DNA of 64,000 bases from a virus: positions 18,803-82,802 of the IMG/VR virus record IMGVR_UViG_3300045988_103544; one strand, given 5' to 3'. The translations under genes and the position numbers were made by a program. Under the pieces are notes generated by a model. The model saw only the letters and a list, made by a program, of their open reading frames with translations, did no database searches and was not told the origin of the DNA. Below are positions 18,296 through 46,621 of the stretch, one piece after another. Position 1 is the first letter of the stretch, and the number at the start of each line of letters is the position of its first letter.

Positions 18296-18969
18296 AGATT
18301 ACTTTGATCCAATACCACCAGGTCTTGTTGTTGCATTCTTTACTGTTTGAGGGAGCTTATCCCACCATACCTGCTTCTGACGAAGTCTTTCAAGCTTTGC
18401 CTTATACTTCATTTTAACTAGAATTGAAAATTAAAAGAAAATTAATCATCTGTGTAATATTAAAATTATCTAGGTAAAATACCATAATTTAGTCATAGAC
18501 ACATCTAGAATAGCCTACAAACTTCTAAATTTAGAATCATGAACAATTTATCACTCTAGAAATGAAAATGTCTTAGAGAGACTCTGAGACATTGCCTTCA
18601 AAGTGCTCATCAGCATACTTACGAGCATCTTTGATATCATCGAAATATCTACTTGGTTTTAATCGGTCACTACGTTTTACCGCAATTTTACCACCAGTAG
18701 TACGATAAATAGTAATAGTGTCCACTGTTGCTTTTACAATTTCTTTAGCCATAATTAATTATTTTTAAAAATTTTACTTAAAGTTTCTGTTAATTCAGGA
18801 TATAGGTAATACAGTGCTAATAACGTATTTATAATTGGACATACTAATATTAATATTGTTATTATATTAGTAGGAACATTAATTTCAGTCCATCTGTCTA
18901 TAACAGCAAATGCAGATCCAATATAAATAGTTATACCTGCAACAATTATTATTGATATAACTAAATACA

Positions 18970-19853: not shown

Positions 19854-20663
19854 TTAGATAACCTTAAACATTGTAACATTCTCAGGAAGATTGTCCCAGT
19901 CTTTATAAGAATTAGTAAACCATACGTGATTAAAGTTTTCTGATAGATTCTTTATACCCTTAGGATTTACCATATGAGTAATTGCGATATTCAAACGTTC
20001 CTTAGGAATACCTAAAGCATTAAATGCTTTAGTAATACCACAAAAAGTGCCTCCACCATCACATAAATCATCAAGAATTAATAATGGTTTATCACTAATT
20101 ATTTCAGGATTGTCTATTTTAATCTCTAAGATTCTTCCAGTAGTTAAATCTCGAACTTTACTACAAGTAATTGCTGTACGATTATATCTGAATTCATTTC
20201 TCTTTTCAGCTCCAGCATCTGGGAAAACTAATTGAAATTCTCTCCAAGTATTATTAGATGGATTCTTTTCAGCGTAAAGAGGCATGAATTTAACTCCGAA
20301 TCTAGGATCATAATAAACATCAGAATGAGGTTCTAAAATTTCAATAGTCTCTGCATTACAATTTTTTAATACATTTAAGACTATTTTTAAAGTGAATGGT
20401 CTATTGAAAACCATTACTCGATCCATTCTCATACTCATTAAGTAATAGATATTTATTTTATATAGAACTTCATGTCTATCAAGGATATCTAAAACTTGCA
20501 TAAGTATAAATAAGTCTTCAGCATTAGTAATTCTACATTGCACTAATACTTGCTCCTTATGGCTGAATTCTTCTAATGAAATTTGAACTTCCCCATCAGG
20601 GAATCTAGAGATAGAATACTTAATATCACTATCTTCTAAATGTACTAAATTTAATTGTTGCAT
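19854..20663 (-). CDS. Ribose-phosphate pyrophosphokinase homolog (PRPP synthetase / possible ADPR-PP synthetase)
   Basis: PRPP-binding motif LLILDDLCDGGGTFCGI; start overlaps the NAMPT gene. Confidence 0.65.
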   Translation of the reverse strand: MQQLNLVHLEDSDIKYSISRFPDGEVQISLEEFSHKEQVLVQCRITNAEDLFILMQVLDILDRHEVLYKINIYYLMSMRMDRVMVFNRPFTLKIVLNVLKNCNAETIEILEPHSDVYYDPRFGVKFMPLYAEKNPSNNTWREFQLVFPDAGAEKRNEFRYNRTAITCSKVRDLTTGRILEIKIDNPEIISDKPLLILDDLCDGGGTFCGITKAFNALGIPKERLNIAITHMVNPKGIKNLSENFNHVWFTNSYKDWDNLPENVTMFKVI

Positions 20664-22696
20664 AATTTATAAATATAAAGAGTTATTGTTGAATCATTAG
20701 CAAAAAGTTCTTGAAGCATAGGATAAACTACTCCATCCCAATCTCCTCCTGCTAATCCACATCCTAATTTATAAGGAATACCTACTTCTGTTACTTCTTC
20801 GTCCTCACAAAAAGCTTTTAAATTTAACAAAGCTTTTTTAAGAGCATTATAATCAGTATGTCTATTTTCAAAAGGAGCTATTGATTCAGTAAAAGAATAT
20901 TCTCCAAATAAATTAGCTACAAATTTAATAGGAAATTCTCCAGTTACACATATTTGACATTTACCTAATAAATTTTTAGAGTATTCAAAATTTTTACAAT
21001 AATTAGCATATTGTGTATATACGCTATTCCATTTATTTTTAATAGCTTTAGCTATACCTGCCCCCATTACTCCTAAACAATTAGTTTGATGGGCTATAAG
21101 AGGTAAATTTGACTGCAGTAAATCTCCATTAACAATTTCTATCATACTAATGTTGAATTTTACACGTTTACGAATTTCAGAAAGAGAATATTTTCTTACT
21201 AATTCTCCATCTACAAAGACTGTTTTAAGACAACCTTGCAGTTCTGCATTCTTAGTCTGCTGGTCATAAGCGACATACTTACCATTCTCTTCTTCAATTC
21301 TAATAAGACCTTTGAGAGAGTTCTTTGTTCCATCATCAGTCTTTGGATGCTTATAGATTTCTATAAGCTTTCCATTAATTATACAAGCAGTTGCTTTAAC
21401 TGCGAAACCCAAAGAATCTCTACTCTTAAATTGATAAGTATAAGATCCAATACCTAGAACAAGATTACAAGCTGCCATATGAGCGTTTTCCAATCTAGCA
21501 TAGATATCACGCTGACGCTCCAGAGTAATAGAATCTCCATAAAGTAATCCAACCTTGGTACTTGGATAACGATAGTCATTTACAGTAGTATTCCATCCAA
21601 AGATTTTTCCTAGCATATAATATGCTCCATAGTACTGACCTTCAGATACTTCTACATAATGATTTTCATCATCGTCCATAAATGGATTGAAATCACAGTA
21701 ATACTTACCTTCTTTCATAGCAGTATGATAGTGAGGATTTGTACGAAGACCACAAATAATGTCTACTGGATCACCACTATCAGGACGAATTACTACTCGA
21801 CCAACACGTTTCATAATATCTGCCTTAAGCTTAGGCAAGAATTTCTCAACTACCTGCCAAAAATCCCAAGTATCAGATACTATTGAGATAATACCTGTTG
21901 GATATAAGTCATTAATAAGACGGCAGTATGTTTCAATCTCACCATCCTCACCTCCTGCGCACATTACTGAATGTTCCGAAGCCGGAACAGTTGCAGCTAC
22001 AAGTTCTTCAGTAACATTTGCATTGTAATAATGTTCTACTGCTTCAATAGCAGGAATTGTTTCACTACCACAGAATGAAGTCATATGAGCCATACCAGAG
22101 ATAATAGCAGCATCAAGTCCTGCCATACCTCTCATTGAGAAATCGTGACAAGAGAAACCTAGATTTACTTCCTCTGGGAATCCAGTCTTTCTAGCATGTT
22201 CCATAAGTCTCTTTTTATAGAGACGAGCACTTGTTGCAGAAGTACAAGGAAGCCATAGAGTACAACTAATTAAAGTTTCCAAGTAATTAGTCAACCAAAA
22301 GAAGTCCGGAAGAGTGTTCTTAATAGTCATCATAGGTACTCTTATAGGACAGATAGAACCTTCAGGAAGAGCTTTAATTTCAATAGAAAGATATCCTAAA
22401 TCATAGAGTTCTTCAATATGCTTTGTCCCAACCTGGTTAAGGTCTACAAAGTTACCTACACGATAAGCAAATTGCTTAATAGCTTCTTCCTTAGGAAGAG
22501 CAAACCATTTGTTAAATTCCTCTATCAAATACTTCTTTACAAAGTACTGAATACCAAATACTACAGAACCTTCTGTAGCTTCTGGGAAGTAACGATTACT
22601 TCTAGGAGTCCAGTTACTATAGACCATTTGTGTACCCTCTGGGTACATACGATGATGACCAAGCTTGTAGCCATCAGTTGCATTAATAATTTCCAT
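20651..22696 (-). CDS. Nicotinamide phosphoribosyltransferase (NadV/NAMPT family) fused to a C-terminal macro domain
   Basis: 681 aa. The N-terminal ~480 aa is NAMPT-like. The C-terminus has the macro-domain signature IAHQTNCLGVMGAGIAKAIKNKW...GIPYKLGCGLAGGDW. Confidence 0.7.
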   Translation of the reverse strand: MEIINATDGYKLGHHRMYPEGTQMVYSNWTPRSNRYFPEATEGSVVFGIQYFVKKYLIEEFNKWFALPKEEAIKQFAYRVGNFVDLNQVGTKHIEELYDLGYLSIEIKALPEGSICPIRVPMMTIKNTLPDFFWLTNYLETLISCTLWLPCTSATSARLYKKRLMEHARKTGFPEEVNLGFSCHDFSMRGMAGLDAAIISGMAHMTSFCGSETIPAIEAVEHYYNANVTEELVAATVPASEHSVMCAGGEDGEIETYCRLINDLYPTGIISIVSDTWDFWQVVEKFLPKLKADIMKRVGRVVIRPDSGDPVDIICGLRTNPHYHTAMKEGKYYCDFNPFMDDDENHYVEVSEGQYYGAYYMLGKIFGWNTTVNDYRYPSTKVGLLYGDSITLERQRDIYARLENAHMAACNLVLGIGSYTYQFKSRDSLGFAVKATACIINGKLIEIYKHPKTDDGTKNSLKGLIRIEEENGKYVAYDQQTKNAELQGCLKTVFVDGELVRKYSLSEIRKRVKFNISMIEIVNGDLLQSNLPLIAHQTNCLGVMGAGIAKAIKNKWNSVYTQYANYCKNFEYSKNLLGKCQICVTGEFPIKFVANLFGEYSFTESIAPFENRHTDYNALKKALLNLKAFCEDEEVTEVGIPYKLGCGLAGGDWDGVVYPMLQELFANDSTITLYIYKLCNN

Positions 22697-23186
22697 TAAT
22701 TGATTCTTTTAATGTTAAACCTATACTATATTTATAAAACACTTCAGTTATATAACTCTTAGTTTTTTTGTGGATTTTCATATGAGGTTGTTGTTTAAGC
22801 CACCATGTATATTCTCTTCTAGGGTCAGCTCCATATGTTTTAGCTGCTGCTAAATAATCACATATAAGTTCTAGAACATATTTTTTAGGCATTTTAGCAG
22901 GAATTCCTCCATTATCTAAGGAATGTATCCAATATTCATAATGGTGAGGATTCCTCCCTCTATGATGAAGGAATGTTTGACTATATCCTAGTATTCTACA
23001 CTCATTCGCTAAAGAGCTCATTTTATCATCCCAATACTTAATAGCTCTTGAAAATTCTGTAAAACTAAATTTAGACAAATCATGAGTAATACCTTGCCAA
23101 TATAATCCTATTTGAAAGCAATATTTAGCAACATAATACTTATGAGTTAAGATTCGCTTTATTAATTTCAACCAAACTAAGTTCAT
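22683..23186 (-). CDS. hypothetical protein (possible HD-domain)
   Basis: 167 aa; an isolated H...HD(L)SK pattern; weak. Confidence 0.35.
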   Translation of the reverse strand: MNLVWLKLIKRILTHKYYVAKYCFQIGLYWQGITHDLSKFSFTEFSRAIKYWDDKMSSLANECRILGYSQTFLHHRGRNPHHYEYWIHSLDNGGIPAKMPKKYVLELICDYLAAAKTYGADPRREYTWWLKQQPHMKIHKKTKSYITEVFYKYSIGLTLKESINGNY

Positions 23187-25999: not shown

Positions 26000-26406
26000 C
26001 AACATCAGTAAGTACCCCTTTGGTACTTACAAATTAAATAATAAGATTAAATAATTGGAGGCATGTATAATCTACAATACTGATTAGCATACCAAGTCCA
26101 ACCCTTCTTAAATGCTTTTAAAGTTCTTTTTAAAATTTTCATCATAATAAATCAAATTTAAAGTTTAACTTATAAAATATCTAGGAGGAGAGTTTAAAAA
26201 ATTAAGAATCCCAGGTAAATCACCCCTGTTAGAGACAATCTTATGGTCTCTATTTTTATTATTTAGGATTCTATAGGAATGCAAAAAACCATCGAATCAT
26301 TCCAGTTCGTAGGTTCTACGACACCTAATAGGCGAGTATGCATCGTTGAGAGGCACCCTATAAGTTACGTTGCTCCTGTAACTAGTATTCTAGAGCTTTA
26401 TCATAG

Positions 26407-26484
26407 TGCAAGATGTGGGAATCAAACCCACGCAAGCCTTCTGGTTGGAAGCCAGATATGCGCCTTCAGCTACACTAATCTTGC
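26407..26484 (-). tRNA. tRNA-Gly (anticodon TCC)
   Basis: Cloverleaf folded by hand: acceptor GCAAGAT/ATCTTGC, anticodon stem TCTGG/CCAGA, loop CTTCCAA, T-arm GTGGG-TTTGATT-CCCAC. Confidence 0.65.
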
Positions 26485-26486
26485 AT

Positions 26487-26825
26487 TTATTTATAAGATA
26501 TCTTTCCAACGCATGAAGAATAAGAAATTTTTTTATTATTATCTTCTAATATATAATAATAATCCTCAAATGTTTCTTGAATACCTTTAAAGACATATTC
26601 TTTATTCATATGCCCATCCATATAACAGGTTTTTCCTACATTAAGTAGTTCTTCTTTTACCCATTTTGGAGCATCTTCAGGAACATTGTCTACAGAATAA
26701 TAATTCCCTATTACTTCATACATTAATTTATTTATTAATTGTTGGAAAGTCTTCATTAAAATAGGAACATCTTCAGTTTTATACTTTAATGTTTCTAAAT
26801 TGTCTGTATCAATAGTTATTTCCAT
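26487..26825 (-). CDS. hypothetical protein (112 aa)
   Basis: Minus ORF. Confidence 0.4.
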   Translation of the reverse strand: MEITIDTDNLETLKYKTEDVPILMKTFQQLINKLMYEVIGNYYSVDNVPEDAPKWVKEELLNVGKTCYMDGHMNKEYVFKGIQETFEDYYYILEDNNKKISYSSCVGKISYK

Positions 26826-26843
26826 AAATATTTAATTTAATAG

Positions 26844-26917
26844 TGGAGCGTAGGAGATTCGAACTCCTAAGAATGCCTGCGTGCAAAGCAGGTGCTGACC
26901 ATTTGAGCCGACGCCCC
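26844..26917 (-). tRNA. tRNA-Ala (anticodon TGC) with G3-U70
   Basis: Acceptor GGGGCGT/ACGCTCC (G3.U70), anticodon loop TTTGCAC, T-arm GGAGTTCGAATCTCC. Confidence 0.75.
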
Positions 26918-26927
26918 AAATTGGAGA

Positions 26928-27404
26928 TTACTCTCCAGTTAATTGTTTTATTTTAAGTTTAGCTTGTGTTAATTCATATACTAAATCAGATATAGTTTTT
27001 TTATTATCTTTAAGATGTTTTTTGAGAGCTTTAATAGCTAATTTCATGCTATTAAAGTCTTTCAAATTATTTGCTATAGATTCTAATTCTCTAAAAGACT
27101 TAGTATTATCAAATAAAGATATATTAACTTTAGCTCTTAACTCTCTAATTTTAAGATTCTGTTTCTCAATCTCATTTTCTAAAGACTGAATCTTATTATT
27201 TAAAGATTCTATACCAAGTCCATTTTCTAATTCATCTATATAGGATTCTAATTCTCCGATTTTTTGTTCTAATCCAGCATAATGCTTTTTTCTTTCAGCA
27301 TCATACTCTTTAAACCTATTTATTTTGCTTTTTAAAACAGCTATAATAAAATCCTTTTTATCATAAAAGTTTGCGTCAGATTGATAATTAAAAGTTTTTT
27401 TCAT
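26928..27404 (-). CDS. coiled-coil hypothetical protein (158 aa)
   Basis: Minus ORF rich in heptad-like K/E/L. Confidence 0.45.
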   Translation of the reverse strand: MKKTFNYQSDANFYDKKDFIIAVLKSKINRFKEYDAERKKHYAGLEQKIGELESYIDELENGLGIESLNNKIQSLENEIEKQNLKIRELRAKVNISLFDNTKSFRELESIANNLKDFNSMKLAIKALKKHLKDNKKTISDLVYELTQAKLKIKQLTGE

Positions 27405-27427
27405 ATTATTTATTTTTTTTAATTAGT

Positions 27428-27497
27428 TGTGGGTATTGGACTCGAACCAATGACCGTTTGCTTATGAGACAAACAAGCTACCACTGCTACAACCCAC
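27428..27497 (-). tRNA. tRNA-Met/Ile2 (anticodon CAT), copy 1
   Basis: Anticodon stem TTTGT/GCAAA, loop CTCATAA, T-arm ATTGG-TTCGAGT-CCAAT. Confidence 0.6.
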
Positions 27498-27507
27498 GAT
27501 ATTAAAG

Positions 27508-27579
27508 AGCTTCAAGTAGGATTTGAACCTACGACCCGCACTTTACAAGAGTGCTGCACTACCACTGTGCTATTGAAGC
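27508..27579 (-). tRNA. tRNA-Thr (anticodon TGT)
   Basis: Acceptor GCTTCAA/TTGAAGC, anticodon stem GCACT/AGTGC, loop CTTGTAA, T-arm GTAGG-TTCAAAT-CCTAC. Confidence 0.75.
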
Positions 27580-27593
27580 TTAAATAAAGGCGA

Positions 27594-27641
27594 ATATGGC
27601 ATTAGACGGGCGAACTATCGTGACCATATTCTAATAATACA
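27594..27641. other. 8-bp perfect hairpin (GAATATGG...CCATATTC) with 24-nt loop in the unassigned 130-nt spacer between tRNA-Thr and tRNA-Asp
   Basis: Perfect inverted repeat; the spacer could not be folded into a tRNA. Confidence 0.3.
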
Positions 27642-27724
27642 TTGAGCTATCAGGCATACTCGTGGATCGCCACCGCTACCTCTAACAACCGCCTAGTTAA
27701 ATGCTAGGTCCTCTCCATTATTTG

Positions 27725-27801
27725 CGGAATATAAGGGACTCGAACCCTTAGTTTTACTAGAGTGACAGTCTAGTTCCCTTACCAACAGGGCTTAATACTC
27801 C
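27725..27801 (-). tRNA. tRNA-Asp (anticodon GTC)
   Basis: Acceptor GGAGTAT/ATATTCC, anticodon stem CTAGA/TCTAG, loop CTGTCAC, T-arm AAGGG-TTCGAGT-CCCTT. Confidence 0.7.
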
Positions 27802-27812
27802 ATGTGTCTTTG

Positions 27813-27883
27813 CGCCTAGACTAGGATTCGAACCTAGGAACCTTTCGGGGCAAGTTAACAGCTTGCTGCCGTTGACCACTTGG
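27813..27883 (-). tRNA. tRNA-Asn (anticodon GTT), unusual 12-nt variable region
   Basis: Acceptor GTCTAGG/TCTAGGC with two G.U pairs, anticodon stem GCAAG/CTTGC, loop CTGTTAA, T-arm CTAGG-TTCGAAT-CCTAG. Confidence 0.45.
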
Positions 27884-27904
27884 CTACCTAGACGAAAGTC
27901 CTGA

Positions 27905-29108: not shown

Positions 29109-31094
29109 TTAAATGTTTACTTTATAAATTTTACCTGAGTCTACTCTAACCATAAGTGAATTACGAGAAGTAGCTATAAATCCTAAACCACTCATCTGAT
29201 TATCATCATAAGGAGTCAAAGCTTTAGATGCTAATACTTCAAATACTCTCTTATGATTTTTAGTGAGTTCGTCTTTAAGATATTCATTAAAATATCCACG
29301 AACAGCATCTGGATTCTTACAATCCTTCAGCATAAAGAAATAGTGCTTAGCACCTACCTTATTATTTCCCCAGTAATTTGGAGATAAACATATAGCAGAC
29401 ACTTCAACAAAGTTTTGAGTCTTTACTCCCCAAATTTCTTTAGATGCTGTAGTACTACTCAAATGTTCCTTAGTAAAGATAACTTCATGTCCATTAGAAG
29501 TAAAGTCTAATACTAAAACATCGCTTTTATGAGGGACGTCTTTATCATACACATAAGTATGAATAACTCCATTGAGCTCTACTTCTACTTCAAATCCTAA
29601 ATCAATATTTTCAACTTTAGCAAAGTTGTTAACAAATACTTTATAAGTACCTGCTTTAGGAATTCCTGAGAAAATGATATTTTCTACAGCATTGCGAGAG
29701 AATTTCTTAGGATTATTACGTTCTTCAAAAGCACTACCTCCACAGGCATTCATATCTACATCAAGAAGGTCTGCTTTATTACCATAATAAATGTGTCCAT
29801 AAGGACTATCCATATGTAAATCTAAATCATCGTAATTATACCAATGAAGAGAGATTCTCATATAGCCATCTACCTTACCTCCTACTTCTTTAACACGTTG
29901 TTTAATAGCATCAGAGATATTACCATTATATGCCCAAGCAAACCCATTATTCCATTTAAACATAGAAGGAGCTTCTTTATTAACTGGGGCAGTAAGAGTT
30001 ACTAAATTATTATTTAACTTATTGTCAAAGAATAATTCAAGCTTACTAGCCTTAGAAACAATATTATTAAGGAACTCTTCCATAGTTGTTGGAATCGCAG
30101 TCTTCTCAAAGTCTGTAGCAGTTTTGCTAGTATTAGAAGTTTCATTCATAAGAGAATCAAATCCTCCTAACATTCTCTTACGAGTTTCTCTATTTACAAA
30201 GATAACATCTTCAATAGATATATCTTCTACTTTAGCATGACGACGCTCTAAAGAATCTTCATAGCCAAGTTCTACTACAGTTTTATAAGCATTTTCTACC
30301 TGAGTTTTAGTGATAATACCCTTAGGTCTCTTATAATTATAAGGAGCAACCATAGCTTCAAACTTCTTAACTGAACTTTCAACATTGTTAGTATCAGTTA
30401 TGTCTTTAAGAAGCTGACCTATAGCACTATTAAGTATATGTGTTACAGCATCAGGAAGTACACAAGAAGATATCCAAGTATAATTATCTAACTCAAAACC
30501 TTCCAAGTGCTTATTCTCTATTGTATCAAGAGCAGTCTTTAAAGCACTCACTTGACGTAGATAAGTGTCACCTCTATAGAGGTTATCATCTGCAATTAAG
30601 TTTAATACTGTTTGTACAGAATTATAGTTAATTTCAGATAAAGTTCTTATCCATACATCATGTGAAGATTTAGCACCTGCACGGAATGTTGGAGTCTGAG
30701 ACTTATCCATAATTAAATTACTTGTAGGAGTAGCATAAAAATGATTCCAAGTAATTATTTCTTTAGAAGGTAATATCTGCTGATTACATTTACAACCCAT
30801 TGTAGTCTCTTCTGTAACAAATGCATTTCTAATTTTAGTATTTTTAAGCACTTGTAACATATTGTCTACAACTTTAGCAAACATTCCTTCAGCGTGAACA
30901 TCCTCCCAGTAAGAATGTATTTTATAGTTCTCATCTACAGAGACTAATGCTCCATAGCGAGTAATGAAATGTTTACAATTTACACAGTTAAATTCTTGAC
31001 GTACGGCTCCTTCAGGGAAAGATTCCATATAAGCCATCCATAAAAACTCTTTTTGAGTGTCAAGAATAAAGAGATGTTTGTTCTCTTTAATCAT
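29109..31094 (-). CDS. large hypothetical protein (661 aa)
   Basis: Long minus ORF; contains GKVDGYMR (KxDG-like), not enough to call a ligase. Confidence 0.55.
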   Translation of the reverse strand: MIKENKHLFILDTQKEFLWMAYMESFPEGAVRQEFNCVNCKHFITRYGALVSVDENYKIHSYWEDVHAEGMFAKVVDNMLQVLKNTKIRNAFVTEETTMGCKCNQQILPSKEIITWNHFYATPTSNLIMDKSQTPTFRAGAKSSHDVWIRTLSEINYNSVQTVLNLIADDNLYRGDTYLRQVSALKTALDTIENKHLEGFELDNYTWISSCVLPDAVTHILNSAIGQLLKDITDTNNVESSVKKFEAMVAPYNYKRPKGIITKTQVENAYKTVVELGYEDSLERRHAKVEDISIEDVIFVNRETRKRMLGGFDSLMNETSNTSKTATDFEKTAIPTTMEEFLNNIVSKASKLELFFDNKLNNNLVTLTAPVNKEAPSMFKWNNGFAWAYNGNISDAIKQRVKEVGGKVDGYMRISLHWYNYDDLDLHMDSPYGHIYYGNKADLLDVDMNACGGSAFEERNNPKKFSRNAVENIIFSGIPKAGTYKVFVNNFAKVENIDLGFEVEVELNGVIHTYVYDKDVPHKSDVLVLDFTSNGHEVIFTKEHLSSTTASKEIWGVKTQNFVEVSAICLSPNYWGNNKVGAKHYFFMLKDCKNPDAVRGYFNEYLKDELTKNHKRVFEVLASKALTPYDDNQMSGLGFIATSRNSLMVRVDSGKIYKVNI

Positions 31095-34185: not shown

Positions 34186-34515
34186 GTGGAGCATTGGAGA
34201 GTCGAACTCCAGTCACTCCGATTTGCATCAAAACGTTCTTACAGCATAGGTTTTAAAGACTATCCTTGTCTGTTAGGGTTGACAAGATTAATATTGTCAA
34301 CTTCCACCACTCTGTTCCTAAAGTATACAGAGAACTAATAAAGAAATGAAAAATAGTGCACCTTTCTGTTCCTAAGCAAGTGCTGCTCGACTTATTAGGC
34401 AGCAGCCTGATAAGCAGGAGTCATATTGATAACTCTAGCGATTATTGTTTTGTTGTCTCTCCAACTGTCTTGCTGTGTTTCTTATCTCCTCGAAGTTCAA
34501 AACCACGAATGCCCC
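34186..34515 (-). ncRNA. ssrA: tmRNA (SsrA-like), ~330 nt
   Basis: 5' end GGGGCAT pairs with 3' ATGCTCC-A, including the G3.U70 alanine identity pair. T-arm GGAGTTCGACTCTCC. Internal tag-like frame ...ARVINMTPAYQAAA followed by TAA TAA. Confidence 0.6.
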
Positions 34516-42499: not shown

Positions 42500-42590
42500 A
42501 TGTTAATGTGTTATTTAATTAAACAAAAAGAGCCTAATTAGATTAACTAATTAGACTCTTTAAAATAGAATAATATAATAAAAGAAATAG

Positions 42591-42663
42591 TGGGCTCGCC
42601 CGGGATTGAACCGAGAATAAGAGATTATGAGTCTCCCGTTTTAACCGATTGAACTACAAGCCC
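42591..42663 (-). tRNA. tRNA-Met/Ile2 (anticodon CAT), copy 2
   Basis: Acceptor GGGCTTG/CGAGCCC, anticodon stem GGAGA/TCTCT, loop CTCATAA, T-arm CTCGG-TTCAATC-CCGGG. Confidence 0.6.
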
Positions 42664-42667
42664 GAAG

Positions 42668-42738
42668 ATGTGTCTGAGGGTCGTTAATCCTCCCCTTTCT
42701 CAGTCAAGAGAACGTTGCAACTTGCCACTAAGACACAC
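42668..42738 (-). ncRNA. tRNA-like element, non-canonical (6-nt anticodon-type loop TTGACT)
   Basis: 7-bp acceptor-like pairing TGTGTCT/AGACACA and stem TTCTC/GAGAA, but aberrant D and T arms. Confidence 0.25.
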
Positions 42739-42866
42739 TGTTTTTGAGTTTTTGTAAGTCCTCCGACTTATTAAAGTTTTCGCATAATTTTGATAAGAGC
42801 TCTACTTTCACAAGCAAAGCTCTTTTATTTTTAATAAATTAAAAGTTAAGATAATGATAGAAAAAG

Positions 42867-42944
42867 GAAATGTGGACAGATTTGAACTGTCAACCTTTGA
42901 GCTTTAACCCAACGCTCTACCCACTGGACTTGAGCTACACATTT
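42867..42944 (-). ncRNA. tRNA-like element with 6-nt anticodon loop (TTAAAG) and 14-nt D-loop
   Basis: Acceptor AAATGTG/CACATTT, D-stem GCTC/GAGC, T-arm GACAG-TTCAAAT-CTGTC; anticodon arm non-canonical. Confidence 0.3.
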
Positions 42945-43149
42945 CTATTTATACTAGTATTGCTATATAGCCTTATTTAAAAACTCATACTACTTTCGCA
43001 AGCAGTTTGAGTTTAAAAAAAAGATAAAATCTTTTACAAAACGAAAATTTTACATTACTTATAAATTTTCACAAATTCACAGTAATTATGAATGATTTTA
43101 ATTTTTCAAAACATAATAAATAATCAATTATGTAGCTCAGACAAGCTAA

Positions 43150-43254
43150 CTTAAACAAAAGGATTCGAACCTTTAATCCTCAAGAAATATTTAACGACGA
43201 CTTTAGAGGCGCTTCCGTCAATCTACTGCCGTATACCAATTCCGCCATATTTAA
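43150..43254 (-). ncRNA. 104-nt tRNA-like element carrying a CCTCTAAAG (CUCUAAA) loop motif
   Basis: Canonical T-arm AAAGG-TTCGAAT-CCTTT and 7-bp terminal pairing TTAAATA/TGTTTAA, but too long and no canonical anticodon stem. TTAAATA occurs twice, suggesting insertion/duplication. Confidence 0.25.
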
Positions 43255-43339
43255 TTAGCTTATAATCTGAACTATATTAATTTTATGAGAATTAGCATTA
43301 CCCGAATAGCACCACGTGGAGGTTTCTCATTTGCTATTC

Positions 43340-43423
43340 TAGCTCAGACGGGACTCGAACCCGTACGGACACATGTCCAATGGTGTTTAAGACCATCTCC
43401 TATACCAATTCGGATACTGAGCC
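43340..43423 (-). tRNA. tRNA-Leu (anticodon TAA), class II
   Basis: Acceptor GGCTCAG/CTGAGCT, anticodon stem ATGGT/ACCAT, loop CTTAAAC, long variable arm GGACA..TGTCC, T-arm ACGGG-TTCGAGT-CCCGT. Confidence 0.75.
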
Positions 43424-43428
43424 AAAGA

Positions 43429-43460
43429 GCAACTAATTATCTGCTAGTTGCCAACAATAT
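43429..43460. repeat. 32-nt repeated hairpin element (copy 1) immediately 5' of tRNA-Leu
   Basis: GCAACTAATTATCTGCTAGTTGCCAACAATAT, identical at 46626-46657; 7-bp stem GCAACTA/TAGTTGC. Confidence 0.6.
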
Positions 43461-43490
43461 TTATTTTATAAACCTTAAACTATTATGGTA

Positions 43491-43850
43491 CTACAATTGT
43501 TTTAACATGTTTGTAGCTATATGTAATGAAATATCCACAGTTGTATGAATATCATCATTTAATTTTAAGATATATGTATTGTTTTCATCATTCTTTCTAG
43601 TTATTTCAGATATGTATTTATGATTTATCAAAAATCCTTGTGTTGCAAGAATAAAATCAATACATAAAACATGTGTAATATCTTTTAATGAACAACACAC
43701 ATCAGTTTTATAGCCATGAACATCTATTATAGTACTATATTTACCAGATGTTTTTATACATACAATGTCATTTATGTTTATCTGTCTGTACTCTCGTCCC
43801 TTAAACACTAAAAATGTATCAGAGTCAATCTGTATTGTTTTTATTTCCAT
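43491..43850 (-). CDS. hypothetical protein (119 aa)
   Basis: Minus ORF. Confidence 0.4.
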   Translation of the reverse strand: MEIKTIQIDSDTFLVFKGREYRQININDIVCIKTSGKYSTIIDVHGYKTDVCCSLKDITHVLCIDFILATQGFLINHKYISEITRKNDENNTYILKLNDDIHTTVDISLHIATNMLKQL

Positions 43851-43855
43851 ATCTC

Positions 43856-44245
43856 TTAACCCATAATAAAACGAGCATCTACAATATTTTCAGGATGATA
43901 AATAGTCTTAATTAATCCTTCCATTACCCATTTTACAACATCAGAATGTTTAACTCCACTTTTAAGTTCATGGTAAAACATTAAATCATAAGCTTCTCCA
44001 CTTTTAAAAGTTACTTTGATTTTAAATGTAGGTTTTTCATCATTTCTAATAAGTTCGTCCATTTCTTCATCAGTTACCATGTAACTGAACAGGGAATTAG
44101 AAAGATGTTCTTTTTCGTACTTCTTTTCAAGTTCAGTTAAGTTTAACTTTGCACACTTGAGTACATGTTTACAATCAAATTTCTTAGCATTTTCTATTTG
44201 TGCTATTAAATTGGTTTTACTAATAAAATAATCTTGTCTTGTCAT
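43856..44245 (-). CDS. hypothetical protein (129 aa)
   Basis: Minus ORF. Confidence 0.4.
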   Translation of the reverse strand: MTRQDYFISKTNLIAQIENAKKFDCKHVLKCAKLNLTELEKKYEKEHLSNSLFSYMVTDEEMDELIRNDEKPTFKIKVTFKSGEAYDLMFYHELKSGVKHSDVVKWVMEGLIKTIYHPENIVDARFIMG

Positions 44246-44436
44246 AATTTATCTATAATTAATGTGTTAATAATCTATTTAAATAATAGGCGATTTTCAC
44301 TGGTTATATTTAAACTATTCCATTGTCCTCAGCTATCTAACGTTCTTTCTCTTTTTAACCCAAATGATTAATTTTAAGGTAATTACGCTATTTAATAGAG
44401 TTACTGAGAGTTGTTTAGTACCTATTTATTAATTAG

Positions 44437-44509
44437 TAGAGGATGGCAGAGTCGGACTGCCTATTAGGAATCCAAAGTTCCTCGTGTGAAGCCGTTACAC
44501 TAATCCTCC
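44437..44509 (-). tRNA. tRNA-Gln (anticodon TTG)
   Basis: Acceptor GGAGGAT/ATCCTCT, D-stem GTGT/ACAC, anticodon stem AGGAA/TTCCT, loop CTTTGGA, T-arm GGCAG-TCCGACT-CTGCC. Confidence 0.7.
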
Positions 44510-44563
44510 GAATAAAATACTATTCTCACGAACCATATTTTATAATTACAAGTATGAATAAAG

Positions 44564-44644
44564 CGGAGAAAGAAGGATTCGAACCTCCGAGCCATGACTA
44601 ACACCTTAGCAGGGTGCCACTTTCGACCACTCAGTCATTTCTCC
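44564..44644 (-). tRNA. tRNA-Ser (anticodon GCT), class II
   Basis: Acceptor GGAGAAA/TTTCTCC, anticodon loop CTGCTAA, long variable arm, T-arm GGAGG-TTCGAAT-CCTTC. Confidence 0.7.
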
Positions 44645-44757
44645 AATAAAGCTTCCTATCTTCACAGACAAGAAGCCTAACAACTCTTTAACGTTATAAA
44701 GTCCGCTGACTTTATATTTTAAACATTAATCGTATTAGTTTTTTAAATATGGAAGAG

Positions 44758-44791
44758 TAGCACTAGCGATGCTTGAAATCGCCTTTCCACT
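44758..44791 (-). tRNA. 3' half (anticodon-stem 3' strand, T-arm, acceptor 3' strand) of a tRNA gene split by the HNH insertion
   Basis: AGTGG-AAAG-GCGAT-TTCAAGC-ATCGC-TAGTGCT-A; pairs with the 5' half at 45542-45575. Confidence 0.45.
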
Positions 44792-45498
44792 TATTTATTT
44801 TCTAATATTAATTCTCTTAATTCTTTTTTAGTATGGGGTATACCATAATTTTTACACCATTTTCCAATGGTATTATCAGTAACTCCATACATTTCCCCTA
44901 TTTTAGTGAAAGGGTATTCTTTTATTAAACTTAATAGTTTTTCTTTATCAGGTCTATCTTTAGGATCTACTTTAAATTGGTTTCTGTGTTTTACAGCACA
45001 TTTTATACAGTATGTAGAACCTCTAGATATTTCTTTTCCACAATCTTTACAATAGTTTATATTTTTTAATTTTTTAGTACCCCAATTATCAGTTTGAGAA
45101 TGACAATTTGGACATAATATCTATAAGTTCTCTAATCTATTATCATCATGTTTACCATTAATATGATGTAATTGATAAGAGATAGGATTATCTAACCAAT
45201 ATCCATTCTTACAAGGACATTTAGGATTTTCACATTCATTCTTTTTAAGACCTTCTTTAATTAGTCTCTTTAAAAGATTGCTAGATTTATAATTACATCC
45301 ATCTACTAAAATATCTTCTAAGCTTTTAGCTTTTACTATATCTCTTTTATTTAGAAAGTGATATTGTATTCCGTAACTATTTAAAGTTTCTTCTAAAACT
45401 TTTATAGCTGAACCGGAAACTGATTTACCTAGATGCCTTAATACATCACTTAAACTTGTAGATTTATTTACAATTTCCTATAATTCTTCTTTACTCAA
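44791..45498 (-). CDS. HNH homing endonuclease, paralog of 54798-55616; uses TAG as a sense codon (2 in-frame TAG); probable TTG start
   Basis: Continuous frame ...KLSKEEL(TAG)EIVNKSTSLSDVL...SYQLHHINGKHDDNRLENL(TAG)ILCPNCHSQTDNWGTKK... ending TAA. The second TAG sits where the paralog has ENLRFLCPNCH and many HNH proteins have ENLQ. No long ORF in the track here. Confidence 0.6.
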
Positions 45499-45541
45499 TT
45501 TATTATTAATTTAATTATTGTTTAATATAATATCTTTTAAA

Positions 45542-45575
45542 TAAGTGGCGTCCTAACCAGCTAGACGATAGTGCC
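45542..45575 (-). tRNA. 5' half (acceptor, D-arm, anticodon-stem 5' strand) of the split tRNA gene
   Basis: GGCACTA-TC-GTCT-AGCTGGTTA-GGAC-G-CCACT. Acceptor GGCACTA pairs with TAGTGCT and anticodon stem CCACT with AGTGG in the 3' half ~770 nt away. Confidence 0.45.
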
Positions 45576-45640
45576 AAGTAGATTCTCTATCTTCACAGAC
45601 TGAAAATCTCGTGTATTACAAATGAATACTTTTAATAAAT

Positions 45641-45714
45641 TAAAAATTAATGGTGCTCTCTGACAGTACTGACCTGTCTTCCCGAAATTAAAAGTTTCGT
45701 GCTTCACCTTAAAG
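45641..45714 (-). tRNA. tRNA-Lys (anticodon TTT), CCA encoded
   Basis: Acceptor GCTCTCT/AGAGAGC-A-CCA, anticodon stem CGAAA/TTTCG, loop CTTTTAA, T-arm GACAG-GTCAGTA-CTGTC. Confidence 0.65.
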
Positions 45715-45770
45715 CTTAGAGAGCTAATTTATAATCTTATTTTGCATAAGAATTTTATTCTTGTATATAG

Positions 45771-45840
45771 TGGAGATACGTGGAATCGAACCACAATCTC
45801 AGGATTTTCATCGTGCTCTAACCTTTTGAGCTATATCTCC
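45771..45840 (-). ncRNA. tRNA-like element (70 nt) with canonical acceptor, D and T arms but no foldable anticodon arm
   Basis: GGAGATA/TATCTCC acceptor, GCTC/GAGC D-stem, T-arm TGTGG-TTCGATT-CCACG; middle ACGATGAAAATCCTGAGAT does not form a 5-bp stem/7-nt loop. Confidence 0.3.
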
Positions 45841-45948
45841 ATAGCCCACATTTCTATAAAGGAGAATAGTGGTAACACCTACCTATACTAATAAATTTAT
45901 TAGTCAGGATTTATCTAAACACACTAACAATATATCAAATTAAATTTG

Positions 45949-46032
45949 TACGGTAGAAAGGATTCGAACCAATGACCTTCTCGAAATGACCTATTATAAA
46001 AAGAGATGCTCTAACCACTGAGCTACTACCGT
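45949..46032 (-). ncRNA. tRNA-like element (84 nt) with enlarged 20-nt anticodon-region loop
   Basis: ACGGTAG/CTACCGT acceptor, GCTC-AGTGGTTA-GAGC D-arm, T-arm ATTGG-TTCGAAT-CCTTT; central stem TCTC/GAGA encloses TTTTTATAATAGGTCATTTC. Confidence 0.35.
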
Positions 46033-46087
46033 AAGTACTAGTTTATATCGGAAAACTAGTAAAACGTTAACACATTATTATGGAAAC

Positions 46088-46486
46088 TTAAAAGCCGAAT
46101 GAAAACATGGTATCTGCGGAAGTACTAAGAGTTACGTAAGGAATTTTATTTCTTACTGTAATAAAGACAATAAAGCGTCTTCCTGTATTAACCTCTCCGC
46201 AATTATGGATTTCTACTCCATCCTTCATTTCAGAAGAGTATATTTTTAATACCATTTTACCAAACTTACTATTACTAAAAGTAATAGTTTTTCTAGCTTC
46301 ATTATATACTACTGAAGTTTTAATATATAATGGGTCACTCCATTCACCATCTTGATAAACAGTGATAGAACCATAATTAAACGCATGAGCTATTGTAGTT
46401 AATACAATAAAACTCATTAATAAAATAATCTTTTTCATATTACTCAATCTTTTTAATGTTAGTACGGAGTAAAGGATTCGAACCAA
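46088..46486 (-). CDS. secreted hypothetical protein (132 aa)
   Basis: Signal peptide MKKIILLMSFIVLTTIAHA. Confidence 0.45.
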   Translation of the reverse strand: MVRILYSVLTLKRLSNMKKIILLMSFIVLTTIAHAFNYGSITVYQDGEWSDPLYIKTSVVYNEARKTITFSNSKFGKMVLKIYSSEMKDGVEIHNCGEVNTGRRFIVFITVRNKIPYVTLSTSADTMFSFGF

Positions 46487-46543
46487 TATAACCTCTCTAT
46501 GAATTGTGGAAATGAGGCGCTCTAGCCATTAAGCTAACTCCGC
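46463..46543 (-). ncRNA. tRNA-like element (81 nt) with enlarged 20-nt anticodon-region loop
   Basis: GCGGAGT/ACTCCGT acceptor, D-stem GCTT/GAGC, same unusual T-arm ATTGG-TTCGAAT-CCTTT; stem GCCTC/GAGGT encloses ATTTCCACAATTCATAGAGA. Confidence 0.35.
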
Positions 46544-46548
46544 ATGTG

Positions 46549-46621
46549 TGGTCCTGGTGAGAATCTAACTCACGACCCGGAATTTAGAAGATTCCTGCTC
46601 TATACACTGAGCTACAGGACC
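46549..46621 (-). tRNA. tRNA-Arg (anticodon TCT)
   Basis: Acceptor GGTCCTG/CAGGACC, D-arm GCTC-AGTGTATA-GAGC, anticodon stem GGAAT/ATTCC, loop CTTCTAA, T-arm GTGAG-TTAGATT-CTCAC. Confidence 0.75.

Follow-up and report, generated by a model that had tools for sequence, protein, structure and literature searches.

The DNA analysed here, a 64,000-nucleotide stretch of IMG/VR virus record IMGVR_UViG_3300045988_103544 (positions 18,803 to 82,802; hereafter the window), belongs to a ~175-kb uncultivated human-gut phage. Its replication/nucleotide-metabolism module contains a block of tightly overlapping genes on the minus strand, including the two open reading frames reported in an earlier note on this DNA: one of 681 aa at 20651..22696, carrying NAMPT_N, NAPRTase and Macro domains, and one of 269 aa at 19854..20663, encoding a Prs-like protein. 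Both frames were confirmed at these coordinates. The Prs-like gene had been placed over the start of the longer frame; instead, it is the 3' end of that frame (20651) that the start of the Prs-like gene (20663) overlaps, by 13 nt, and the order is namat::macro followed by the Prs-like gene. The proposed division of the 681-aa protein into two parts holds, but not at the suggested boundary (~480 plus ~180 aa): the NAMPT-like part comprises aa 1-517 (21146..22696) and the macro protein the 164 aa from M518 (20651..21145), within which the motifs quoted earlier were located, AHQTNCLGVMGAGIA at aa 535-549 and GCGLAGGDW at aa 645-653. Anticipating the assignments argued below, these genes are referred to as namat (putative nicotinamide ADP-ribose transferase), adpp (macro-domain ADPR-1''-phosphate phosphatase homologue) and adps (Prs-like, putative ADP-ribose pyrophosphate synthetase). 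Upstream of them, a gene for a 167-aa DUF5662 protein (22683..23186) overlaps the start of namat by 14 nt, completing the order DUF5662, namat, adpp, adps. A tmRNA predicted by ARAGORN elsewhere in the window (34186-34515) lacked Rfam support and was discarded.

The single fused frame exists only through one extra A in a run of four at 21158..21161, identified by junction alignment with relatives and by pattern scans. The insertion precedes the ancestral ATGA, in which the adpp ATG overlaps the namat TGA stop, by 13-16 nt and moves the final five codons of namat into the reading frame of adpp; Namat thus ends in KFNIS (21146-21160), where the relatives end in ...RVNSTLV and a stop. When the junction was aligned with those of the relatives L001, L004-L007 and L019, A4 was present in the window alone, the relatives having A3 or TAA. 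The same three genes occur unfused in L004-L007, in L019 and in the Thalassavirus phages, and in every relative examined separate namat and adpp genes are joined by the ATGA overlap. None of the best 120 Namat matches carries a Macro domain and all of the best 120 macro matches are standalone proteins. Likewise, pattern scans of IMG/VR and metagenome contigs recovered the ancestral junction (12 + 14) and no A4 among the 26 junction-bearing contigs. The earlier note had seen in the fusion a non-standard architecture linking ADP-ribose recognition to the transferase reaction. With adpp a separate gene in every relative examined, the 681-aa protein is not an evolved architecture; on the junction sequences it is a 1-nt frameshift private to the strain. 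Programmed frameshifting at the A-run was considered and rejected: the site was not judged to have the X XXY YYZ form of a canonical slippery heptamer, and in the relatives there is no need for such a mechanism. Stop-codon recoding is irrelevant to the junction, because the codon that follows the namat TGA in the relatives is an in-frame TAG.

The extra A could itself be a sequencing or assembly error, in which case the real genome would carry separate namat and adpp genes. A single-base difference in homopolymer length is the classic error type, A4 is confined to contigs that match the window at 100% identity and may all derive from one sample, and repairing the junction restores exactly the C-terminus of the relatives together with the ATGA overlap. 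On the other hand, the exact 681-aa protein and its A4 run are also present in an ENA scaffold and in a Logan contig, the products of two different pipelines, and the run is just 4 nt long. Moreover, the extra A is the sole uncompensated private coding 1-nt indel in the ~13 kb compared, so that nothing suggests an error-prone read technology. An artefact is accordingly unlikely, and A4 most likely represents a genuine allele of very recent origin, private to the strain. Since both enzyme sequences are complete apart from the last five residues of Namat, the fusion is probably neutral or tolerated.

The macro part was examined with regard to 'NAD+ reconstitution pathway 1 with associated phosphatase' (NARP1-AP), published in January 2026 (bioRxiv 10.64898/2026.01.28.702374). 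There, Adpp is defined as a macro-domain protein (PF01661, PF14519 or PF20016) encoded no more than two genes from the NARP1 pair, and Adpp of Vibrio phage Gary converts ADPR-1P to ADPR and is required against aRES. In the window, the macro domain predicted in the earlier note is borne out by Pfam (PF01661, aa 536-656 of the 681-aa protein, E=1.6e-9, 38 bits against a cutoff of 22), and the gene lies between namat and adps. PHROGs places aa 509-677 in phrog_335, annotated 'phosphatase' (4e-37), the same family into which Gary Adpp falls. Direct comparison with Gary Adpp (KNV71_gp137) yields 86.7 bits and 36% identity (aa 1-161 versus 1-158, E=5e-27), and the blocks AHQxNC..MGxGIA and GCGLAGGDW..VV.PM..ELF are common to both. 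The best 120 macro homologues measure 134-165 aa, mostly 160-165, and the macro fold was confirmed in a structure model of the window protein, whose substrate loops are of low confidence.

The solved structures closest to the macro protein, in both sequence and fold, are the de-ADP-ribosylases DarG and TARG1 (40 bits; Foldseek ranks 1-9), which remove ADP-ribose from DNA or protein. This raises the alternative that the macro protein is a hydrolase of that kind, which might for instance counter DarT-type or other ADP-ribosylating defences and in doing so release ADPR for NARP1; phage-encoded DarG-like antitoxins are described in two reports (PMC13309987, PMC11481870). Poa1p, an ADPR-1''-P phosphatase cited as a homologue of Adpp (bioRxiv 10.64898/2026.01.28.702374), was not among the top 50 Foldseek matches of the model. 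However, sequence searches of the PDB do return Poa1p, and these macro-fold proteins match at 30-40 bits; because Poa1p, TARG1 and DarG all belong to the same match set, structural proximity does not discriminate between their activities. Against this alternative, the macro protein is twice as similar to Gary Adpp (87 bits over the full length) as to DarG, and far more similar to phage Adpp than to Poa1p or TARG1; its gene occupies the operon slot of Adpp, between or beside adps and namat, and the Gary enzyme has the phosphatase activity described above. The alternative thus appears quite improbable. The macro protein is better regarded as a putative Adpp, the ADPR-1''-P phosphatase of NARP1-AP, which would feed substrate into the pathway; nothing points to a role of the domain in the Namat reaction.

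For the remaining two proteins, the earlier note had favoured the NARP1 pair, Adps plus Namat, over a canonical NadV-Prs pair. Pfam assigns NAMPT_N to aa 3-58 (E=1.4e-8) and NAPRTase to aa 181-497 (E=1.4e-33) of the 681-aa protein, and PHROGs assigns aa 3-516 to phrog_448 ('NAMPT', 3e-174). The Namat part scores 469 bits against the Namat of Bacillus phage SPbetaL1 (PDB 9W5X) versus ~205 against human and rodent NAMPT and 191 against Xanthomonas Nampt, in pairwise comparisons whose Nampt side consists of solved NAMPT structures. It has been reported that Namat enzymes carry a selectivity clamp of consensus GS-X-Phi-X-Phi-X-Phi-TRD, the aromatics of which confer preference for ADPR-PP (PMC12774641). 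The window protein has the helix GSYTYQFKSRD (21416..21448, minus strand; aa 417-427), which fits this consensus: its third and seventh residues are aromatic, the adenine-stacking Y419 and F423, and position 9 has S in place of T. The corresponding segment is GSFTYQYNTRD in SPbetaL1 Namat, whereas the aromatic clamp is missing from true Nampts, exemplified here by Xanthomonas Nampt (GGALLQKVDRD). A NAMPT domain with NMN-forming residues only, named in the earlier note as an argument against NARP1, is therefore not what the window encodes.

The remainder of the protein agrees with this picture. Window Namat is 45% identical to that of SPbetaL1 (structures 9W5X/9W5W, the identity of which was confirmed), with clamp and catalytic residues kept, and all 20 of the 20 NAD+-contact positions are identical or conservatively substituted. 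The catalytic-His motif EHSVMC (21959..21976, minus strand; aa 241-246) aligns with PATEHSVMC of the Bacillus phage enzyme. Further equivalents, window versus SPbetaL1, are R35 = R40 in the clamp loop, F186 = F189, R189 = R192, R304 = R306 and D306 = D308; the nicotinamide-binding D215 is represented by E212, a conservative exchange common to the relatives. These relatives are 516-517 aa long, and the best 120 Namat matches are mostly of 514-520 aa. The NAMPT-like part is thus probably a Namat, which would prefer ADPR-PP over PRPP and form NAD+ directly. With NARP2 (NadV/Nampt plus NMNAT, as in Vibrio phage KVP40) and with cellular NAMPT it has in common the NAMPT fold and nicotinamide/ribose-phosphate chemistry; NARP2 phages have no Adps partner (Osterman et al.).

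The 269-aa protein falls in phrog_619 (5e-59) and matches Pfam Pribosyltran and Pribosyltran_N below threshold only. Membership of phrog_619 was rejected as a discriminator between Adps and Prs, the model giving 201 bits to the window protein and 193 to E. coli Prs. A housekeeping PRPP synthetase, another outcome that the earlier note regarded as adverse to NARP1, is not indicated either. TIGR01251, with its cutoff of 113 bits, gives the protein 60.3 bits, validated Adps 98-119 and E. coli Prs 423. The protein also stays far below every cutoff of the NCBIfam Prs equivalog models; across the Prs models E. coli Prs reaches 423-533 bits. In BLASTP the window protein scores 87 bits against Adps of Bas60, 70 against that of phage Cody, 69 against Gary, 67 against ICP1 and 62 against SPbetaL1, versus 41 against E. 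coli Prs and 25-40 against solved Prs, the assignment here being one of pairwise scores with few bona fide Prs sequences in the comparison. The protein is divergent, with 24-29% identity to validated Adps. The gut-phage Adps of the window, of L013 and of cr111_1 form a subgroup of their own, with 40-43% identity to one another.

Further evidence comes from the comparison with ICP1 Adps (NrsA), a PRPS-like ADPR pyrophosphokinase of known structure (PMC13586617) to which the window protein is 27% identical. Of the ICP1 residues, F18, R87, H121, D161, K185, D212, D213, C215, D216 and F221 are kept. The catalytic lysine, K169 within SKVRDLTTGRI (20130-20162, minus strand), is equivalent to ICP1 K185 and SPbetaL1 K162, and the histidine aligned with H121 lies in PHSDV (20316-20330, minus strand). 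As this lysine, R87, H121, D161, D212 and D213 are also found in Prs, they indicate competence and not specificity. In ICP1 the PP loop is remodelled into C215-D-G-A-A-S220 with F221 as a lid, an arrangement conserved among Adps (PMC13586617), and the window loop DDLCDGGGTF (20043-20072, minus strand) is of the Adps type, conforming like that of ICP1 to C-D-G-x-x-[ST]-F. The loops read CDGGGTF in the window, CDGGRTF in Bas60 and SDGGASF in Gary, versus IDTGGTL in E. coli Prs. Two ICP1 residues that contact ADPR/ATP differ in the window protein. F223 is replaced by G in the window, by K in SPbetaL1 and by E in Bas60. The adenine anchors F18' and R87 are kept, whereas at the third, F92, the window has M, SPbetaL1 has E and Bas60 has C, a position that is not diagnostic since it varies among validated Adps. 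In addition, Adps are reported to have lost the alpha11-alpha12 module found at the C-terminus of PRPS, a 'defining evolutionary signature' (PMC13586617). The window protein, like ICP1 Adps, is devoid of this module, ending ...VTMFKVI after the last strand, whereas E. coli Prs runs ~22 residues further; the N-terminal helix of Prs is missing as well. Operationally, Adps are defined by being encoded beside a Namat gene, which holds for 97% of the Adps clade (Osterman et al.); window adps adjoins adpp and is one gene away from namat. Taken together, the protein is probably an Adps, which would form ADPR-PP.

The reading that we favour, at a probability of roughly 0.85, is that the locus is a NARP1-AP operon in a large gut phage, its apparent fusion being the strain-private frameshift. 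The pathway itself has already been described, and the locus is an ordinary further instance of it. Judging from the tested homologues, which underlie the whole mechanism proposed here, the pathway would rebuild NAD+ destroyed by bacterial defences. RES-type effectors (aRES) produce ADPR-1''-phosphate, from which Adpp would strip the 1''-phosphate to yield ADPR; Adps would then form ADPR-PP by transferring the beta,gamma-pyrophosphate from ATP to ADPR, at the 1''-OH, and Namat would combine ADPR-PP with nicotinamide into NAD+ and PPi. In the window strain, Namat would be made with a complete Adpp on its C-terminus, and the ATG of adpp (M518) is still present.

The closest known counterpart is NARP1-AP of phage Gary (Adps-Adpp-Namat; Osterman et al.), in which members of all three enzyme families are likewise encoded by one compact operon, with a macro protein of ~160 aa and identities of 36% for Adpp over the full length, 41% for Namat and 27% for Adps. 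The Gary (NC_055913) and Cody (NC_055849) Adpp proteins are 98.1% identical. The predicted role, to counter both ADPR- and ADPR-1''-P-producing NADases, would be common to the two systems. They differ in gene order, namat-adpp-adps in the window and adps-adpp-namat in Thalassavirus, and the window phage is a human-gut phage related to Bacteroides and Prevotella phages, with a DUF5662 gene upstream and the namat-adpp frameshift fusion. The NARP1 of SPbetaL1 and of E. coli phage Bas63 (Osterman et al. 2024), in contrast, consists of two genes without a phosphatase, and systems of this type cannot use ADPR-1''-P (bioRxiv 10.64898/2026.01.28.702374). As proposed for the window, an accessory feeder enzyme that turns an alternative NAD+ product into ADPR is found in the RyDEP-extended NARP1 of mycobacteriophage DyoEdafos (bioRxiv 10.64898/2026.05.28.727677); that enzyme, an RyR-domain glycosidase acting on 2'/3'-cADPR, is absent here.

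The fusion might alternatively be adaptive, yielding a bifunctional enzyme in which the macro domain captures ADPR derivatives or channels them to the transferase. Genes for enzymes that act consecutively in a pathway commonly fuse in the course of evolution; the fused frame occurs in two assemblies with both parts complete, and Namat is sporadically fused to its downstream gene in a sister lineage (P0022, P0030). Nevertheless, the pathway order is Adpp, Adps, Namat, which means that the fused enzymes do not catalyse consecutive steps and that channelling makes no sense. As the fused architecture is missing from all relatives and from the public junctions scanned, and can be traced to one base in an A-run immediately ahead of the ATGA overlap, an adaptive fusion is very improbable. 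Canonical salvage, in which the Prs-like protein makes PRPP, NadV makes NMN from it with nicotinamide and a host or phage NMNAT completes NAD+, is likewise very improbable: Namat enzymes do retain a core resembling that of Nampt and are able to form NMN from PRPP in vitro (PMC12774641), all catalytic residues common to Nampt are present in the window protein, and phrog_619 scores E. coli Prs about equally, but the failed Prs models, the Adps-type PP loop and missing Prs elements, the adenine clamp, a Namat score more than twice the NAMPT score, an ADPR-1''-P phosphatase homologue within the operon and the lack of an NMNAT-like gene among the neighbouring ORFs checked all speak against it.

As a NARP1-AP operon, the locus would extend this counter-defence pathway to large uncultivated human-gut phages. 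Among the genomes listed with aRES homologues are those of Bacteroides and Prevotella, which suggests that NAD+-centred warfare, including its ADPR-1''-phosphate branch, probably also takes place in the gut microbiome. Regarding annotation, 'Prs' would become Adps, 'NAMPT/NadV' Namat and the macro gene adpp. For the mining of domain architectures, the case calls for caution, given that 'novel fusions' in metagenomic phages can stem from single-base frameshifts at ATGA-type junctions.

The HD-like DUF5662 gene is co-linear with the NARP1-AP genes, and its product is tentatively a small HD-superfamily phosphohydrolase; a sequence search of the PDB returned no match. A general role as a NARP1 accessory was rejected, the family being found in only 11 phage records and not lying beside NARP1 genes in Moorella phage MTATph1 or a Manatee Spring podovirus. 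The middle gene of the block is exchangeable: where the lineage of the window has the Macro protein, its sister lineage and crAss-like Steigviridae encode a small HAD-like protein unrelated to it. A speculative and rather doubtful extension would be that the four genes DUF5662-namat-X-adps, a block conserved in this gut-phage group, represent an expanded NAD+ reconstitution module with two accessory feeder hydrolases, the exchangeable phosphatase X and an HD-type DUF5662 protein that opens another dead end. One candidate substrate would be ADPR-1'',2''-cyclic phosphate, converted to ADPR-1''-P for Adpp; ADPR-cP was detected alongside ADPR-PP in the NARP1 preprint and, by analogy with PRPP, may form spontaneously from it. 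Were this extension true, the frameshift fusion would illustrate a way in which NARP enzymes with several domains could arise at overlapping junctions. In the insert of P0003, a search for an intein or Hint domain gave no Pfam match. Single-base frameshift fusions at ATGA-type junctions were observed as three independent cases in this gene family.

The locus is very probably an NARP1-AP operon, encoding a pathway already described for Vibrio phage Gary. It occupies a tightly overlapping block of ORFs on the minus strand of the window (19854-23186), in which a DUF5662 gene (22683-23186, minus strand, 167 aa) comes first, followed by a 681-aa ORF (namat::adpp; 20651-22696, minus strand) with NAMPT_N, NAPRTase and Macro domains, each above its Pfam cutoff, and by a Prs-like ORF (adps; 19854-20663, minus strand, 269 aa). 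The two latter ORFs are present as the earlier note described them, except that the Prs-like gene, said there to overlap the start of the long ORF, overlaps its 3' end. The overlaps measure 14 nt (DUF5662 and the 681-aa ORF) and 13 nt (the 681-aa and 269-aa ORFs); stop and start codons arranged like this point to translational coupling across the four genes. Downstream of adps lie small ORFs and an RNase H gene. Among the PHROGs, the 681-aa protein matches phrog_448 ('NAMPT') over aa 3-516 and phrog_335 ('phosphatase') over aa 509-677; for the 269-aa protein the match is to phrog_619 ('Prs', 5e-59), and the Pfam Pribosyltran models give sub-threshold scores only.

NARP1 has two enzymes, the Prs-like ADPR pyrophosphokinase Adps and the NAMPT-like nicotinamide ADPR-transferase Namat (bioRxiv 10.1101/2024.02.11.579819). 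In January 2026 the same laboratory added, in a preprint, that aRES (RES-domain defence proteins) split NAD+ into nicotinamide and ADPR-1''-phosphate, a product that Adps does not accept as a substrate, and that the macro-domain protein Adpp, encoded in about 15% of NARP1 operons, strips the phosphate from this product, NARP1-AP having been demonstrated with the three separate genes of Gary (10.64898/2026.01.28.702374). By analogy with these homologues, NADase effectors would generate nicotinamide together with ADPR, or with ADPR-1''-phosphate in the case of aRES; Adpp would then remove the 1''-phosphate, Adps would make ADPR-PP from ATP using K169 as the catalytic Lys, and Namat, with R35, Y419 and F423 clamping the adenine, would join nicotinamide to yield NAD+.

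The NARP1 reading proposed in the earlier note is borne out by residue and score comparisons of both Namat and Adps. The features that separate Namat from Nampt have been defined structurally (PMC12774641). The window protein carries the selectivity-clamp motif GSYTYQFKSRD at aa 417-427, resembling GSFTYQYNTRD of the Namat of phage SPbetaL1 and differing from GGALLQKVDRD at this position in a Xanthomonas Nampt, and its R35 aligns with the SPbetaL1 clamp residue R40. The catalytic His motif EHSVMC is present, R304 corresponds to SPbetaL1 R306, and the remaining NAD+ contacts are identical or conservative relative to SPbetaL1 (substitutions D215->E212, A362->S389 and T398->S425). Against solved structures, the window Namat scores 469 bits with 9W5X/9W5W, confirmed as SPbetaL1 Namat, versus about 205 bits with mammalian NAMPT; it is also 61% identical to the Namat of crAss-like Bacteroides phages.

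The Prs homologue is likewise unlike housekeeping Prs and, by pairwise scores, closer to validated Adps. With the NCBIfam Prs model TIGR01251 (cutoff 113 bits) it scores 60 bits and E. coli Prs 423; among the Adps, that of SPbetaL1 reaches 106, that of Bas60 (sibling to the tested Bas63) 119 and that of Cody (same genus as Gary) 98.5. BLASTP gives 87 bits to Bas60, 70 to Cody, 69 to Gary, 67 to ICP1 and 62 to SPbetaL1, against 41 to E. coli Prs and 40 to the best solved Prs; PHROG 619 fails to separate Adps from Prs. Residue criteria were taken from the September 2026 structure paper on ICP1 Adps (PMC13586617) and mapped through the ICP1 ORF228 sequence, with which the residue numbering of that paper agreed throughout. 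The window protein keeps F18, R87, H121 (part of a shared PHSDV motif), D161, K185 (window K169), D212, D213, the F221 lid and the PP loop, which is CDGGGTF here, CDGAASF in the ICP1 protein and IDTGGTL in that of E. coli. F92 and F223 differ, both positions being variable among validated Adps too. The Prs N-terminal helix is absent, as is the C-terminal alpha11-alpha12 module, a loss regarded in that paper as 'defining' for the family (PMC13586617). An Adps of Prevotella phage Lak-A1 is 41% identical.

It is the macro part that sharpens the assignment from NARP1 to NARP1-AP. Taken alone (aa 518-681), it aligns along its full length with KNV71_gp137, the Gary Adpp that was tested, at 36% identity (86.7 bits, E=5e-27), shares phrog_335 with it, and also matches Poa1p, a yeast ADPR-1''-P phosphatase cited as a homologue of Adpp (10.64898/2026.01.28.702374). 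Modelled with AlphaFold2 at medium quality (pLDDT 70.7), the macro part adopts a macro fold, and its closest solved neighbours are DarG macrodomains and TARG1, which lends some weight to the minor alternative that this part is a DarG-like de-ADP-ribosylase. The aRES-carrying genomes tabulated in the preprint include B. thetaiotaomicron and several Prevotella species (10.64898/2026.01.28.702374), so that selection pressure for Adpp is plausibly present in the presumed host range.

The fused architecture, which the earlier note singled out as non-standard, is a one-base frameshift private to the strain, as judged from alignments in which the relatives' namat and adpp are separate; neither 'fused' nor 'fusion' appears in the text of the NARP1-AP preprint (10.64898/2026.01.28.702374). 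None of the best 120 database matches to the 681-aa protein has a Macro domain; all carry NAMPT_N and NAPRTase only, most are 514-520 aa long, including those at 92-96% identity, and one cluster holds 1,719 members; the C-terminus of these Namat homologues reads EIR(E/K)RVNSTLV. Conversely, the best 120 homologues of the macro part are all standalone (134-165 aa). Five related contigs encode, in order, DUF5662, Namat (517 aa), Macro (161-164 aa) and Adps (269 aa), with the macro ATG and the namat TGA overlapping as ATGA. At the junction every relative reads ...CGTGT(A/T)AATTCAACATTAGTATGATA..., versus ...CGTGTAAAATTCAACATTAGTATGATA... in the window, where one extra A (21158-21161) converts NSTLV* into KFNIS and reads through into M518, the adpp start codon. 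This is the sole uncompensated single-base indel within the operon coding sequence. The ancestral junction occurs 12 times in IMG/VR and 14 times in a metagenome contig collection, and the A4 junction has no match in either.

The extra A is most probably a real, very recent allele (probability about 0.85), whose carriers possibly all derive from one sample. The exact 681-aa protein is recorded on four to five contigs, two of which match the window at 100% identity across 8,046 nt: a 173-kb ENA scaffold (sample SAMEA3449271) and a contig from Logan's assembly of ERR912076. Both carry the base, which has therefore been reproduced by two assemblers. This, together with the lack of any further private coding frameshift in the ~13 kb of the window comparable with relatives, makes an error improbable. 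The functional effect of a real fusion would probably be small, given that both sequences are complete but for the last five residues of Namat and the adpp ATG is retained. Since Adpp acts at the first step of the pathway and Namat at the last, with no direct succession between them, the fusion could not plausibly bring an advantage through substrate channeling.

Fusion accidents at such junctions evidently recur: in a sister lineage whose common form is unfused, namat overlaps the next gene by 26 nt, and two singleton proteins (P0022 and P0030) have Namat fused to the product of that gene, each at a different position within the overlap. In these independent frameshift fusions the partner (C-terminus, L013:4001-5962) is a phrog_1238 protein. 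A 143-146-aa protein of this family, unrelated to macro, is the middle gene between namat and adps in three sister-lineage contigs (L013, L048 and L047:4538-4978) and in the crAss-like Steigviridae phage cr111_1 (gp074, L014:4481-4912), which indicates that different genes can occupy the middle position of the operon. The protein has an FDFDNT (DxDxT) motif, its match to HAD (Hydrolase_3) stays below threshold, and it may be a phosphatase playing an analogous part in NARP1; no reference to it was found in the NARP1-AP and RyDEP (bioRxiv 10.64898/2026.05.28.727677) preprints.

The namat gene of this phage group is also a host of selfish elements. In a 97% identical relative (L019:2519-2733, Logan ERR3986744) it is interrupted by a group I catalytic intron of Rfam family RF00028 (52.4 bits, E=2e-12) at a site equivalent to window ~21405-21414, just past the clamp motif, and the 280-aa 'NAMPT' fragments found in its protein cluster could be gene calls split in this way. 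An 840-aa homologue (P0003, Namat 96% identical) has a 323-aa in-frame insert directly before the catalytic His, whose boundaries look intein-like (VPA/C...VCGN/TEHSV, slashes at the boundaries); it has no Pfam match to a Hint, intein or homing-endonuclease domain. Window 21240-23090 is missing from MT835492.1, the closest relative in GenBank (96-97% identity), through a 1.85-kb deletion whose junction shows 7 nt of microhomology. The deletion takes out Namat aa 1-485 together with most of DUF5662 but leaves adpp and adps in place; unless a second Namat is encoded elsewhere in that genome, its NARP1 pathway would be broken.

The window covers the region for replication and nucleotide metabolism in a large human-gut-metagenome phage (related contigs, 170-190 kb). 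Its genes include those for a primase, exonucleases, DnaB-type and other helicases, and 14 tRNAs (ARAGORN and Rfam combined), the tRNA genes lying in two minus-strand arrays (26406-27893 and 42590-46621). Such arrays are typical of large phages. A tmRNA predicted by ARAGORN at 34186-34515 was rejected for lack of Rfam support. A 661-aa protein (29109-31094, minus strand) matches phrog_1735, a phage family of unknown function, very strongly (5e-197). One tRNA (45948-46032, minus strand; Rfam 53 bits) has a UUA anticodon according to ARAGORN and is a predicted suppressor of the TAA stop. Yet on the coding strand 33 of 48 long open frames end in TAA, every operon gene among them; the UUA assignment could be a mis-assigned anticodon (the gene, at 85 nt, may carry an insert) or could reflect late-gene recoding.
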